Assembly (NCBI GenBank): GCA_049515895.1
Contig: JBEKTQ010000011.1
Location: 30,147 to 94,146, forward strand
Reading direction: 5' to 3'
Origin: Candidatus Bathyarchaeia archaeon
GTDB taxonomy: Archaea > Thermoproteota > Bathyarchaeia > Bathyarchaeales > Bathycorpusculaceae
DNA: 64,000 nucleotides
Numbering within the stretch: position 1 is the stretch's first letter; each line of letters begins with the position of its first letter. This document shows positions 664 through 29,426 of this stretch, piece after piece. Under the pieces are notes generated by a model, which did no database searches, was not told where the DNA came from, and saw only the letters and a program-made list of their open reading frames with translations. The position numbers and the translations under genes were made by a program.

Positions 664-1161
664 ATGAAAGCGTACATGACTCTTTCCTGCAAAAAGGGTG
701 CTTTTAACACGGTCTTGGATGATTTAATAAAATTGAATCTTTCCAAGAAAGACGTCTTCTTACTTTTTGGTCCAGTTGACATTCTCGTCCAATTGCGCTT
801 CAAAGACATTGACGAATTCATCAATAAATGGTTCAACCCAATTAGAACGATAACTCCTCAAGAACCGATGATTGAGAAAACGCAAACTCTTATCGTCATT
901 TCAGAAGGCAAACCATTCACTGAGGAGCCATATGCTTTCCTGTTCCTCAACACTCAGCCCAGGAACCTTGAACAGGTCCAACGAGAGCTTCAAAGGATCC
1001 CTAACGTTCTGTCGGCTGACACGGTCTTCGGACCCTATGACGTTATATGCGCTATTAGAGCAAACGACAAGGAAGACCTAAAAAGAGTTATTTCTCAAAT
1101 ACAAAATGAAGTCTCAAATATCCAGGGAACAGTAACCGCAATCGTCGCTTCGCTATACTAA
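664..1161 (+). CDS. Tandem Lrp/AsnC ligand-binding (RAM) domain protein without HTH
   Basis: Two repeats: LLFGPVDILVQL...KTQTLIVI and TVFGPYDVICAI...GTVTAIV. No N-terminal HTH. Confidence 0.75.
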   Translation: MKAYMTLSCKKGAFNTVLDDLIKLNLSKKDVFLLFGPVDILVQLRFKDIDEFINKWFNPIRTITPQEPMIEKTQTLIVISEGKPFTEEPYAFLFLNTQPRNLEQVQRELQRIPNVLSADTVFGPYDVICAIRANDKEDLKRVISQIQNEVSNIQGTVTAIVASLY

Positions 1162-1259
1162 GCTCTACGACTTTTTCAGCCCACACTCCAACAAAAAGGC
1201 AGGCTAACTTACTACGAACTAATAAATCAGGACCACACATGCGCGCATATTTGCATTCT

Positions 1260-1275
1260 AAAAAACAAAAAAAAA
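1260..1275 (-). terminator. Probable oligo-T terminator after the CBS gene
   Basis: A-run AAAAAACAAAAAAAAA on + strand reads as a T-tract on - strand about 12 nt after the stop at 1288. Confidence 0.45.
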
Positions 1276-1287
1276 GGGAGATAGAGA

Positions 1288-2127
1288 TTATTTTGCGTAA
1301 GCCTCGACGATATCGCGTGCTGTTATAATTCCTACGAACTTGTCGTCTTTGACGATTGGCAATCTCCTAATGTGCTTTAACGCCATTGTTGCAGCAGCTC
1401 TGTGAACGCTTGTGCCGGCAGGAATCGTGATTAGAGGTCGGGAGCATTCTGGTCCTACCTGTACAAACAACGCTCTTCCTTTGGCCAAGAAAGATGTGAG
1501 CAAATCCCGTTCAGTGAAAATCCCATATGGCTCTCCTTTCTGGGTAATTATGACGCTGCCGATGCGCTGTCTACCCATCATGCCGCCTATGCTGATAACG
1601 GATGTTTCTTCGGGAGCAGTGACAAGTTCTCTGGTCATGAAGTCATCAACTTTGGCCTCGGTTTCAGGTACCTCAGGCAAACTCTTGATTAGATCCGAAG
1701 CAGTTATGATTCCTACAAGAGTTCCAGCGTCAAACACCGCAAGTCTACTTTTCTTATTAATCATCAGCTGGGCAACTTCTTTTATCTGAGCCGTGACGGA
1801 AACACCAGATAGTGGATATGACATCACATCCTCCACTTTTTCATCCCTTAGAAACAGGCCAAGCGCTAGAACCTTACTTAACAAATCGCGTTCAGTAACT
1901 ATCCCTACAGGCGTTCGGTACTTCTCCACAATTAGACTGCCAACATGCTTTTCACCCATGACACGAGCCGCTTCATTGAGCAGAGTTTCTGGAGTTGTGG
2001 TCACGACATTTTGGCTCATTAACTCCTTCGCCATTCGATAACGCGGCAAGTTCCGCTTATACTGCTCATAGGCATTATCGACTACACCCGGCAACGTCCT
2101 TCTGGATTCTTCTTGAGGTGTCGCCAA
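1288..2127 (-). CDS. Four-CBS-domain protein
   Basis: Repeated CBS motifs VGIVTERDLL, LVGIITASDL, YGIFTERDLL, FVGIITARDI. TTG start. Confidence 0.9.
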   Translation of the reverse strand: MATPQEESRRTLPGVVDNAYEQYKRNLPRYRMAKELMSQNVVTTTPETLLNEAARVMGEKHVGSLIVEKYRTPVGIVTERDLLSKVLALGLFLRDEKVEDVMSYPLSGVSVTAQIKEVAQLMINKKSRLAVFDAGTLVGIITASDLIKSLPEVPETEAKVDDFMTRELVTAPEETSVISIGGMMGRQRIGSVIITQKGEPYGIFTERDLLTSFLAKGRALFVQVGPECSRPLITIPAGTSVHRAAATMALKHIRRLPIVKDDKFVGIITARDIVEAYAK

Positions 2128-25979: not shown

Positions 25980-26563
25980 TGTATAATGAACTTTACATGG
26001 CATGGCTAAGAGAAGTGGACGAGGATTCGCTCGGGGGCTTACCGCGTGATTTTTACGTCAAAATAGCCGATTACCTAAAACGCATAAGGGAAGAAAACAG
26101 GCTGCCTGACAAAAAATCTGTAAAGGTAAGCTTGCTTGACCATGAAGCCAATAACGTGGCACTCATGCTCGAAGAGTTGCTTTGGGCAAGATACAAAAAA
26201 CTGTTGAAGAAAATCAGCCAAAACCAAACCTTGCCGTCTGAACTGCTAACGGTTGAAGAGGCGAAGATGTGTGAAAGCTTTGCAGCTTTCGCGGGTGCAT
26301 ACCAGAAGTTTACAAAGGACTTACTGCAAGGCCAAATAAGCCAAAGTGGTAGCCAAGCGCTTCGCCAAACCGAGACTAAAGCGGAAGTTGAAGTTAGTCA
26401 TAAACGGGTGACGTTAAGGTTCATAAAGAATATTCCAGCGATTATGGGCGCCGACATGAAATCTTATGGTCCTTTTCTGGTCGAGGACGTTGCTTCCGTG
26501 CCGGCTGAGAATGCCACCATTTTGGTTAAACAGGGTTTGGCGGTGTTGGTTGAGGTTTCTTAA
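25979..26563 (+). CDS. gins15: GINS subunit Gins15/Gins51
   Basis: Helical A domain (LPRDFY, RYKKLL, LTVEE) plus C-terminal B domain (IPAIMGADMKSYGPFLVEDVASVP.ENA..LV). Follows priS. Confidence 0.85.
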   Translation: MYNELYMAWLREVDEDSLGGLPRDFYVKIADYLKRIREENRLPDKKSVKVSLLDHEANNVALMLEELLWARYKKLLKKISQNQTLPSELLTVEEAKMCESFAAFAGAYQKFTKDLLQGQISQSGSQALRQTETKAEVEVSHKRVTLRFIKNIPAIMGADMKSYGPFLVEDVASVPAENATILVKQGLAVLVEVS

Positions 26564-27584
26564 GGGCTTTATCGGATTTTCCAATTTTTAGTTTTCGCCA
26601 CAGACCTTGGGTAGCGAAAATGATTAGTGGATAACACATTATCCAAATTATCGAGTAGAGGGGGCCATAATAAAAGTGGAAATCTTGCACTTGTGTTGAG
26701 TTTACCCCATACTGCATGCCGATGTTGAAGATGGTGACTATCCTGAGCACGTTTATGAAGTAGGTGACGACTACCCCAGTCGCAAAGTATCCTGCTTTAG
26801 CCTTCCAAGAGATGTGTATCTGCTGGAGAAACACTAAAACCACTGCCGTGAAAATTAGGAAACTTTCGATGCCAGCGCAGGGCCAAGCAATTGAGAATTT
26901 AGCCGTTCCTAAGGGTCCCGTGGCTTGCAGGGTTGGCATCCCATTTACTGTCTTTAGGGAAGTGATGCATCCCATCCAGTTCAGTGTTTTAGCGGCAAGT
27001 ATAGCGGTGGTCGGGACTAATATTTGAAATGGGGTAAATGCTCCGTAAGGAAAAACGTTGTCGATGGTGTATATGACTCCAACTAACCCTGCAAATATTC
27101 CTGGCAAGGCTAGGCCAGCCAGACCTTTTTTGCCGAAATAGAATAACGCGATAAAACAGAAGAGAACTGAAAAAACGAGGTACTCAAGCGACAGCGGCAT
27201 GGAATCGTAGAAGGCAACTCCTGCCTGCTGAGACCATTTTGCTATGGCACCGTTTAGTCCAAGATAATACTCAGAAATCACGTAAATTGTGGGAAGCAGC
27301 AACGCCACACTGAAAGCGACAAGCTTCGTAACACTTTGTTTATTCATTTTTGGTTTGAAGGTATCCCAGCTAAGGATAAATTCAAGTGCCACGAGCCAAA
27401 TGAAGAATAGCTGGAAGGTTCTGCCCTTCCACATTAACTGAAAGGACGACTGAGCATTAACCTGAAGGTAAGGGTCAGAGGGGTTCAATATGAATAGCAA
27501 AGCCATTGGCACAGCAAATGCTATGAGTGGCAACAGCTTAGCAATGGCATCCGTGTGCTCACTTATTTTTGAAAAAACTTGCAT
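26526..27584 (-). CDS. Archaeosortase/exosortase-family protein (thaumarchaeosortase-like)
   Basis: Multi-TM. Cys-Arg-His triad motifs WPCAGIES, INVLRI, FHFYYG. N-terminal WKGRTFQLFFIWL. Confidence 0.85.
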   Translation of the reverse strand: MQVFSKISEHTDAIAKLLPLIAFAVPMALLFILNPSDPYLQVNAQSSFQLMWKGRTFQLFFIWLVALEFILSWDTFKPKMNKQSVTKLVAFSVALLLPTIYVISEYYLGLNGAIAKWSQQAGVAFYDSMPLSLEYLVFSVLFCFIALFYFGKKGLAGLALPGIFAGLVGVIYTIDNVFPYGAFTPFQILVPTTAILAAKTLNWMGCITSLKTVNGMPTLQATGPLGTAKFSIAWPCAGIESFLIFTAVVLVFLQQIHISWKAKAGYFATGVVVTYFINVLRIVTIFNIGMQYGVNSTQVQDFHFYYGPLYSIIWIMCYPLIIFATQGLWRKLKIGKSDKALKKPQPTPPNPV

Positions 27585-27794
27585 TGCCGCATTACTCGCA
27601 TGTACATAACCTTAAAATTGGGTTAGGTTTAAAAAGAATGTGCCTTTTCATAAAACACCTGCATATCAAGCGATTGATGCAGAAAAACCAATCGGCCAGC
27701 AATGGTCCAATTCGGCTACGCTTTATTGCGGCGGAAAGGTGAAAAAGTATAAGAATGCGGATGTTCCTTCTATGCAAAGCTGGTAGTGAATAAC

Positions 27795-28070
27795 GTGAAT
27801 GTTCCTAAAGAGGTTAAAACCTACTGTCCAAAATGTAAAGTGCACCAAATTCACACCGTAACGCTTTACAAGCCAGGGAAGCGAAGAGCCCTAGCCAAGG
27901 GTGAACGCCACCATGAAAGAGAAAAGGAGGGTTATGGCGGACAAAAATATCCGTTGCAAAGGGAATTCGCGAAAACAACAAAAAAACAAACCCTGCGCCT
28001 TAAATGCAAGGTTTGCAATTACATGAGGCATAAAGACGGTATCCGTCTCAGAAAATTAAATATACAATAA
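27795..28070 (+). CDS. rpl44e: 50S ribosomal protein L44e (eL42)
   Basis: [29 protein letters not shown]. Confidence 0.96.
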
Positions 28071-28087
28071 TTATGGAGAGAAAAGAT

Positions 28088-28285
28088 ATGACTGAATGGA
28101 GTAAACTTATTCCGAAACCGCGAAGCATCTTCCTCAGAGTTAAATGCTCAAAATGCGGCAATGAACAACTAGTCTTTAGCAATGCTGTTAACAAAGTAAA
28201 CTGCAACGTGTGCGGAGTAACACTTGCTGAGCCAACTGGGGGAAGAGCAAAGATTAATGGTGATGTGCAAGCCATTCTCGAATAG
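28088..28285 (+). CDS. rps27e: 30S ribosomal protein S27e
   Basis: [21 protein letters not shown]...[14 protein letters not shown]. Confidence 0.96.
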
Positions 28286-28299
28286 GGATGGCGAAATGA

Positions 28300-28491
28300 A
28301 TGGCTGAGCGTAAGCCCGAGTGGCCTGAAGCCGGCGACTTGGTTATTGTCACGGTAGAATCCGTCACCGATTATGGCGCTTACGTTAAATTTGACGAATT
28401 CGACAAACGTTGGTTGCTTCACACATCCCAAGACACTGTGACAACCGTCTCAAAAGCAGGCGGAGAAAGCACTTTCAGAAGGGAAAAATAA
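28300..28491 (+). pseudogene. eif2a: Translation initiation factor aIF2-alpha, internally deleted (63 aa)
   Basis: N-terminus WPEAGDLVIVTVESVTDYGAYVK.DE is the aIF2a S1 start. It joins directly to a C-terminus-like SKAGGESTFRREK. Located at the canonical site between rps27e and nop10. Confidence 0.85.
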
Positions 28492-28659
28492 TTGGTGTGG
28501 CAACTCCGCAAATGCGTAAACTGCAGCAAGTACACTCTGAAAAAAGATAGTTGCCCTTACTGCGGCGGACCCGTTAGGATTCCGCATCCAGCAAAGTTTT
28601 CCCCAGATGATAAATATCTTAAATACCGTATGGCAATGAAAAGGAGTTGTGCAGAATGA
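28492..28659 (+). CDS. nop10: H/ACA RNP protein Nop10 (not in ORF track)
   Basis: Translated by hand from TTG 28492: MVWQLRKCVNCSKYTLKKDSCPYCGGPVRIPHPAKFSPDDKYLKYRMAMKRSCAE. Confidence 0.95.
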   Translation: MVWQLRKCVNCSKYTLKKDSCPYCGGPVRIPHPAKFSPDDKYLKYRMAMKRSCAE

Positions 28660-29426
28660 AAGAAACATACCTTAAACAGTTCGCTGAAATCCAGCCCAAC
28701 AACCCGATTCTAATCGAAGGTCTCCCAGGATTGGGGCTTGTGGGCAAAATCGCACTCCGCTACATGGTTAAACAATTGAAACCCAAAAAAGTAGCATATC
28801 TTTACTCGCCGCATTTTCCATACTTCGTCTTAGTCAACAAGAAGGGAAACGTTCGCCTCTTAAGGGGAGTATTTTACTATCATAAGAATCCAAATGGAAA
28901 TGACTTGATTCTGTTCACAGGCGACAGCCAATCACAAACAATCGAAGGACAATACGAAATCGCCGATCAAATTCTTGCCTTCTCAGAAAAGTACAACGTA
29001 AAAACAATCGCGACAATCGGCGGCTACCGAATGGAACCCACAGAAAAACCCAAAGTCTTTATCGCGGCAACATCTCAAGAAATCCTGGACAAAGCCCTAC
29101 GCGCAGGCGCAACACTTAGCACTTCAGGAAGCCCCATCGTTGGAACAGCTGGATTAATTCTTGGTCTAGCAAAATTCAAAAAAATAGGGGCTCTTTGCCT
29201 GCTCGGCGAAACGCGCGGTTACTTGCCTGACCCGCTCTCTGCAAAAAGCGTGCTTGAGGTCCTGAAGTCCACGTTTAACTTCGACTTAGACCTCGCGGGA
29301 TTAGACGAGGAAATTGCTCGAGCTGAAACAATGGTGACTCGCCTCCAGCAGATCGAAGAGAAACGGGCTCTTGAAGCTGAACAAACCCGAAAAGAAGATG
29401 ACAAAAAGACCACTTACATTTCTTAA
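28656..29426 (+). CDS. PAC2-family proteasome assembly chaperone (COG2047)
   Basis: LIEGLPGLGLVGK, LYSPHFP, TGDSQ, IVG.AGL.LG, CLLGET.GY..DP..AK. ATGA overlap with nop10. Confidence 0.9.
   Translation: MKETYLKQFAEIQPNNPILIEGLPGLGLVGKIALRYMVKQLKPKKVAYLYSPHFPYFVLVNKKGNVRLLRGVFYYHKNPNGNDLILFTGDSQSQTIEGQYEIADQILAFSEKYNVKTIATIGGYRMEPTEKPKVFIAATSQEILDKALRAGATLSTSGSPIVGTAGLILGLAKFKKIGALCLLGETRGYLPDPLSAKSVLEVLKSTFNFDLDLAGLDEEIARAETMVTRLQQIEEKRALEAEQTRKEDDKKTTYIS

Follow-up and report, generated by a model that had tools for sequence, protein, structure and literature searches.

Remains of a superseded aIF2-alpha gene between rps27e and nop10 in a genus of Bathyarchaeia, probably kept as a short translated spacer ahead of nop10

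The archaeal genes for L44E, S27E, aIF2-alpha and Nop10 form the LSIN cluster (L44E-S27E-aIF2alpha-Nop10), which is part of the PPsG-LSIN neighbourhood and whose conservation among archaea has been described as almost universal (Berthon et al. 2008, PMC2643942). Closely spaced genes can be linked by termination-reinitiation. According to two reports on Haloferax and Escherichia coli, this process needs an overlap or a very short distance between the genes and is almost lost at about 20 nucleotides (nt), and 15 nt from the 3' end of the upstream gene are enough for coupling (PMC6728339; Huber et al. 2023, PMC10666635). Here we describe the LSIN cluster in a 64,000-nt stretch of DNA, referred to as the window, from Candidatus Bathyarchaeia archaeon (assembly GCA_049515895.1, contig JBEKTQ010000011.1, positions 30,147 to 94,146). 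Its aIF2-alpha slot holds an open reading frame (ORF) of only 63 codons. This ORF is the relic of an aIF2-alpha gene, and a full-length paralogue is encoded elsewhere in the same genome. In the following, the ancestral aIF2-alpha gene at the slot is called copy A, the off-slot paralogue copy B and the genome of the window G000. We consider it fairly probable that the relic of the superseded copy A is kept as a translated spacer ORF which couples translation into nop10.

The relic was aligned globally with the intact slot gene of a sister genome, G094. This alignment yielded the two segments listed in Table 1, joined at TCC|CAA (28428/28429), with 198 codons missing between them. Using tblastn, the relic matched intact slot genes with 75-80% identity over 44 amino acids (aa) and E-values of about 1e-21 to 1e-22, and copy B of its own genome with an E-value of 9.5e-13. 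Consequently, the homology to aIF2-alpha is not due to chance. A preliminary description of this locus had reported the 63-aa ORF at the rps27e-nop10 slot, the same junction and the start of nop10 on the next base, and these observations are confirmed. It had also listed altered S1 positions. These substitutions are real when compared with an intact slot gene (AKLDEY to VKFDEF, KRGLLH to KRWLLH and HVS to HTS), but the reference state of the last one is HVS; the HIS given there is the state of copy B.

Residues 44-241, which are missing from the relic, make up one half of the S1 domain, the complete helical domain and the greater part of the gamma-binding domain 3. A Pfam scan found no match to EIF_2_alpha (PF07541, covering the helical domain and the start of domain 3) in the relic and only a sub-threshold match to S1 (14 bits at a cut-off of 22, E 0.067, profile positions 2-35 of 74). 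The traits that define aIF2-alpha, namely a complete S1 domain, an EIF_2_alpha domain and about 260 aa under purifying selection, are absent, and of the defining traits the ORF retains the location between rps27e and nop10 alone. In contrast, homology to the parent gene at both ends and at the orthologous locus, relaxed constraint on the peptide and an intact copy elsewhere identify it as a gene relic.

The window belongs to a metagenome-assembled genome of 53 contigs with an estimated contamination of 4.87%, and a collapsed assembly that conceals a full-length slot gene had to be considered. A 572-nt contig present in runs X1 and X2 (a possible source sample) spans positions 28016-28587 with 0 differences. 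The junction is also covered by a 172-nt contig of a different study (X4), which extends over 28335-28506 with 1 difference and without a gap, and no joints were reported. Comparable relics were found at the same slot in the assemblies of 55 other species, several of which consist of a single contig. Over the first 122 nt, 28% of the positions distinguish the relic from copy B, which contradicts a chimera with this copy. With contigs of other runs across the junction an assembly artefact was ruled out, and a collapse is practically out of the question. The preliminary description had likewise preferred a true deletion to a misassembly.

As proposed in that description, the whole G000 genome was searched for aIF2-alpha and for the other two subunits. 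PF07541 detected a single full gene, copy B (C19:20406-21191), which encodes 262 aa with matches to S1 (E 2.9e-11) and EIF_2_alpha (E 6.8e-25) and has a ratio of nonsynonymous to synonymous substitution rates (dN/dS) of 0.063 over 6 pairs. The genes for aIF2-gamma and aIF2-beta are located on C1 and C25, respectively. Copy B and the relic share only 72% DNA identity over the first 122 nt. Thus, B is an old paralogue and did not arise by recent transposition of the slot gene. Where genomes of the genus are closed, for example in G003, the slot and B are found on one chromosome, which identifies B as a resident gene and not as contamination. The named relatives of B are metagenome-assembled genomes of Bathyarchaeia. 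The organism therefore retains the alpha subunit, supplied by B. The preliminary description had offered initiation without an alpha subunit, with aIF2-beta and aIF2-gamma only, as one explanation for the destroyed slot gene. The full-length B with both domains under purifying selection, together with an EIF_2_alpha match in 62 of 62 high-quality genomes of the genus sample, rules this out and leaves it a negligible probability; the same description had named a full-length aIF2-alpha elsewhere in the genome as the finding that speaks against loss of function. Its other suggestion, a relocated copy, is correct insofar as a full-length and constrained gene is located on C19. The word relocated is imprecise, since B forms a separate clade (see below) and is not the same gene moved.

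On one side, copy B (L001, G000:C19, around 1141..1929) is flanked by a gene for ribosomal protein L35Ae on the opposite strand and a small treble-clef zinc-finger gene, on the other side by an unassigned 128-aa ORF overlapping its 3' end and a PadR-type regulator. In three relic-bearing genomes, G115 (L221), G086 (L222) and G088 (L223), B is the only full-length copy and carries one or two single-base frameshifts. These lead to an internal stop in G115 and G086 and to a short open frame in G088; the genes are otherwise 80-95% identical. Such frameshifts, like those in copy A of G069 described below, are possibly long-read indel errors or decay under way. G060, which has a reduced slot and an estimated contamination of 6%, contains two off-slot full-length copies (C8:27604-27930 and C9:18731-19057), and the second one may reflect a mixed bin or a further duplication. 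Five small contigs of G000 (C48 and C50-C53; L133-L137; 2.7-3.7 kb) have a G+C content of 55-60%, compared with 40-46% for the rest of the genome. A search of these contigs for rRNA gave 5S matches only, on C50, and they may be binned contamination.

The distribution of both copies was surveyed in 101 genomes, including G000, drawn from a larger group of one Bathyarchaeia genus. In each genome nop10 was located, the slot was fetched and the spacer was measured from the rps27e stop to the nop10 start. The slot was full-size in 45 genomes and reduced in 56 (spacer of 59-300 nt). An intact copy A (spacer of 795-812 nt) was present in 44 of the full-size slots, with an off-slot EIF_2_alpha copy in 26 of these genomes and none in 18; the remaining one, G069, has a multiply frameshifted A and an off-slot copy. 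At least one off-slot copy accompanied 50 of the reduced slots, leaving six without. Copy A alone was thus found in 18 genomes, both copies in 27 (one with a broken A) and B alone in 50. The six genomes in which a reduced slot is not backed by an off-slot copy have a completeness of 52-75%. The 50 with such a copy are all reasonably complete, which holds for none of the six.

A FastTree gene tree was calculated from 68 proteins (44 A, 17 B and 7 outgroups of the same order). All 17 B proteins fell into one clade with a support of 1.0 and a long stem, drawn as sister to the A proteins of the genus, and the outgroups were placed outside. This topology is compatible with a gene duplicated no later than the base of the sampled genus and subsequent reciprocal loss of the copies, with a long-branch effect as a possible influence on the position of the B clade. 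In a FastTree phylogeny of 1.5 kb of flanking genes, which is poorly resolved, the reduced slots were scattered in several places among the full-size ones. The erosion of copy A was therefore repeated and partly independent.

Selection on the relic peptide was estimated from 17 sister pairs. The relics gave a dN/dS of 0.56 and their middle parts alone a value of 0.60. For rps27e and nop10 of the same pairs we obtained 0.093, an upper estimate because a mis-registered control pair (L084-L131, nonsynonymous divergence pN 0.22) was left in. Intact copies of A showed 0.047 for codons 7-43 and 0.078 for the whole gene. The relic peptide is nearly free to change. The relaxed selection postulated in the preliminary description is apparent from the difference to these controls (0.05-0.09). 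The possibility that the relic is a functional micro-protein, for example half an S1 domain with a C-terminal tail that binds RNA or an aIF2 partner, would agree with the open ORF and its start signals, with a dN/dS below 1 and with the N-terminal 30 residues, which look conserved in the longer relics. Nevertheless, we regard it as very unlikely. The same codons are constrained about 12-fold more strongly in intact genes, the S1 match covers less than half of the profile and stays below threshold, the relics vary between 14 and 94 codons with differing retained segments, and the shortest keep only about six residues from each end.

The lengths and ends of the relics were compared across the 56 reduced slots. 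The relic of G000 comprises residues 1-43 and 242-261 of the ancestral protein, that of G051 residues 1-60 and 242-261, that of G115 residues 1-48 and 242-261, that of G096 residues 1-44 and 212-261, that of G092 residues 1-40 and 250-261, and that of G053 residues 1-6 and 254-261. Since the breakpoints differ, in-frame loss must have recurred. In 45 of the 56 relics the frame can be read without interruption between the ancestral start and the stop after ..FRREK, which is ancestral as well. The distance between the start anchor and the end anchor takes 27 distinct values, of which 20 are divisible by 3 (binomial P 1.8e-5), and five of the seven others are 1-2 nt off an in-frame sister value, which suggests secondary small frameshifts. 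The stop of each of the 56 relic ORFs lies within -13 to +28 nt of the nop10 start. When single frameshifts were simulated, 51% ended more than 20 nt upstream of nop10, and 62% did so for the relic of the window.

The ends themselves are well preserved. ATG is found at the ancestral start in 51 of the 56 relics. A purine-rich motif upstream of the relics (GGGATGA/GAGATGA) takes the place of the GGAGG/GAGGTGA-like motifs of the intact slots and may act as a Shine-Dalgarno sequence. At the other end, the last approximately 21 nt of the slot gene (TTTAGAAGGGAAAAATAA type) were kept in 55 of the 56 reduced slots and in all 45 full-size ones, and the same counts apply to the ..FRREK motif with the TTCAGAAGGGA anchor. 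Frame, ends and stop position have been preserved recurrently across species.

In the clade with the shortest relics (slots L050, L054, L058, L062, L084 and others) the rps27e-relic spacer reads GAGATGAACAGCAAA-ATG, and an extra in-frame ATG four codons upstream lengthens the relic (MNSK-MAERK...). The corresponding upstream ATG in other clades opens a two-codon mini-ORF ended by TAA or TGA.

The start of nop10 is TTG in 48 of 55 parsed relic slots, and the relic stop abuts it directly in 43. In intact slots nop10 starts with TTG or GTG at a spacing of -1 to +2; eleven full-size slots that had been parsed as 'ATA, -4' were read as TAG-T-TTG (+1) from the sequence strings. No 16S rRNA was detected in G000 by an RF01959 search, and a search for primer-site motifs was also empty. 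The 16S 3' ends of three closed members of the genus, which read ..GGATCACCTCCT, were used instead. With 5 of its 6 positions identical to AGGAGG, the complement of this 3' end, the AGAAGG in the last codons of the relic is a candidate Shine-Dalgarno element for nop10. In two relic-bearing genomes, G081 (C17:173658-173817) and G023 (C1:99469-99628), the nop10 match contains an internal stop and falls into two pieces, which may reflect a sequencing error or real damage.

These data can be explained in the following way. Copy B would have taken over the supply of the alpha subunit, after which A was no longer needed and its internal 198 codons were lost. The relic would no longer work as a protein and would be kept as a short translated ORF with start signals of its own. 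Ribosomes that terminate at its stop, which abuts the weak TTG of nop10, could re-initiate on nop10; alternatively, ribosomes moving along the relic could unfold the AGAAGG element or keep it accessible. From nop10 they would continue into the PAC2-family gene through the ATGA overlap. In this way translation of the relic would drive nop10 expression, an assignment we infer from comparative sequence data. The preliminary description had suggested that the remnant persists for translational coupling to nop10, and the frame and stop positions across the genus favour this reading. For the more general proposition, that remains of the superseded gene were recruited as dedicated coupling ORFs and repeatedly trimmed in frame to as few as 14 codons, the balance tips only slightly to the positive side.

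Several observations weigh against a translated spacer, and some of them would be expected from a plain decaying pseudogene. A look-up of public runs for this DNA gave no RNA run. According to this alternative only nucleotides at the two ends are constrained, namely the start region after rps27e at one end and the Shine-Dalgarno-like element with the start context of nop10 at the other, and the frame is open because mutations have not disrupted it so far. The strongly relaxed peptide constraint and relics of down to 14 codons are compatible with it, and so is the lower synonymous divergence (pS) at the relic ends (0.08-0.10) compared with the middle (0.18), which is expected under constraint at the nucleotide level. 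Frameshifts or degeneration affect 11 of the 56 relics. Five relics lack an ATG at the ancestral start; four of them have an upstream in-frame ATG and G102 has none. Strict in-frame translation is therefore dispensable in some lineages. AGAAGG, located 9 nt before the TTG, could permit de novo initiation at nop10 without coupling, in which case the conservation of the 3' end needs no translated relic. All three frames have a stop near nop10 (0, -13 and +28), which weakens the case for a selected frame. A Fitch count gives only 21-25 of 35 length changes as multiples of 3, although this parsimony is implausible in places (lengths growing from 27 to 199) and was kept as a conservative bound only. 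The frame statistics count distinct lengths as events among related species on the poorly resolved flank tree. The multiple frameshifts of the full-size A of G069 (slot L097), which stands beside an intact B, would break the coupling if they are real, and may alternatively be long-read indel errors. Finally, a relic dN/dS of 0.56, and not 1, leaves some constraint unexplained, and conditioning on open frames may bias this value.

Three findings are difficult to reconcile with simple decay. The frame is kept far above the expected one third (20 of 27 lengths) across independent breakpoints. None of the relic ORFs stops at a greater distance upstream of nop10 than 13 nt, while about half of the simulated frameshifts would end more than 20 nt upstream. 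The start codon and the upstream purine motif were retained in 51 of the 56 relics. We therefore hold the plain pseudogene to be rather unlikely and prefer the translated spacer that couples into nop10.

The remaining features of the locus are summarized in Table 1. The spacings within the cluster are 2 nt between rpl44e and rps27e, 14 nt between rps27e and the relic, 0 nt between the relic and nop10 and -4 nt between nop10 and the PAC2-family gene. Judged from these distances, the whole gene string looks designed for translational coupling. An alternative start of the PAC2-family gene is the upstream TTG at 28647 given by the ORF listing; relatives align from residues 3-5 of this longer ORF. 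In the wider neighbourhood, the DNA primase PriS and Gins51 are encoded upstream of the cluster; downstream, the opposite strand carries MCM and a second GINS subunit. An archaeosortase-like gene, located between Gins51 and rpl44e on the opposite strand, interrupts the PriS-Gins51/LSIN supercluster. Other kinds of element were also considered. An Rfam E-value scan of 27600-29000 gave a single chance-level match outside the relic (rnk leader, E 0.25) and the predicted RNA fold of the relic was not unusual (z-score -0.65), which rules out a non-coding or structured RNA in the relic. A terminator search found none inside the cluster. An internal promoter was rejected as well: the only matches were at consensus level to a sigma-70-type promoter, a consensus not applicable to archaea.

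Table 1. Features of the LSIN cluster and its surroundings in the window.
Feature	Position	Strand	Evidence and remarks
352-aa membrane protein, archaeosortase-like	26526..27584	-	weak Exosortase_EpsH match, E 1.6e-7
rpl44e (ribosomal protein L44e), first gene of LSIN cluster	27786..28070	+	Pfam Ribosomal_L44, E 1.8e-25
rps27e (ribosomal protein S27e)	28073..28285	+	Pfam Ribosomal_S27e, E 3.6e-21; begins 2 nt past rpl44e stop
rps27e-relic spacer, 14 nt, GGATGGCGAAATGA	28286..28299	+	has purine-rich GGGATGA/GAGATGA-type motif
Relic ORF, ATG start, 63 aa, TAA stop at 28489-28491	28300..28491	+	
Relic 5' part, codons 1-43, equivalent to slot-type aIF2-alpha residues 1-43 (first half of S1 domain)	28300..28428	+	alignment, tblastn
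Relic 3' part, codons 44-63 and TAA, corresponding to residues 242-261 (C-terminal tail) of slot-type aIF2-alpha	28429..28491	+	alignment
AGAAGG in the last codons of the relic, candidate Shine-Dalgarno element for nop10	28477..28482	+	9 nt before TTG
nop10, TTG start abutting relic TAA (0-nt spacing)	28492..28659	+	Pfam Nop10p, E 2e-24
PAC2-family gene, probable ATG at 28656 overlapping nop10 stop (ATGA)	28656..29426	+	Pfam PAC2, E 1.9e-43

These results show that the LSIN cluster can lose its aIF2-alpha member once a paralogue exists, which argues against an obligatory cis-linkage of this gene with the other three. Within one uncultured genus they also document an old duplication of aIF2-alpha whose copies have been lost reciprocally. 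The relics constitute a natural series of in-frame deletions of 14-94 codons in more than 50 species and provide comparative evidence on coupling in a lineage without genetics. If the proposed coupling is true, they would represent natural minimal termination-reinitiation elements that show what an archaeal ribosome needs to re-initiate. From a practical point of view, annotation pipelines will call the relic ORFs truncated aIF2-alpha or hypothetical proteins or miss them, and completeness tools may mis-score this marker. A literature search of partial coverage yielded no description of duplicated aIF2-alpha genes in Bathyarchaeia, nor of gene relics that are retained as coupling ORFs.

Compared with the canonical LSIN aIF2-alpha gene, the relic occupies the same slot among the same neighbours (PriS, Gins51, MCM and a GINS subunit) and has the same first 43 and last 20 residues. 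It differs by the absence of residues 44-241 and of an EIF_2_alpha match, and the 'I' member of LSIN is eroded in this way in 56 of the 101 sampled genomes of one genus. The A clade and the B clade, with A-only, both-copy and B-only genomes, resemble reciprocal (differential) loss after duplication; here, in contrast, the lost copy is still visible as an ORF-shaped scar in which both ends, the frame and the stop position have been preserved. In upstream or leader ORFs a short ORF for a poorly conserved peptide controls the downstream cistron. The relic would be similar in that its translation, and not its product, would matter for the next gene. It differs by its origin from the erosion of an essential-gene paralogue, and regulatory stalling or attenuation has no support here. 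Termination-reinitiation pairs are resembled by the co-directional ORFs, the stop/start spacing of -1 to +2 nt and the Shine-Dalgarno-like motif inside the upstream 3' end. A short upstream tail would be enough in both cases, with minimal relics of 14 codons here and 15 nt in the published work. Unlike in those pairs, the upstream partner is a gene remnant and the coupling is inferred from comparative genomics; moreover, the commonest junction is TAA|TTG with 0-nt spacing, whereas the two reports stress ATGA/TGATG overlaps (PMC6728339, PMC10666635). The relic would combine two known kinds of element, a pseudogene relic and translational coupling.
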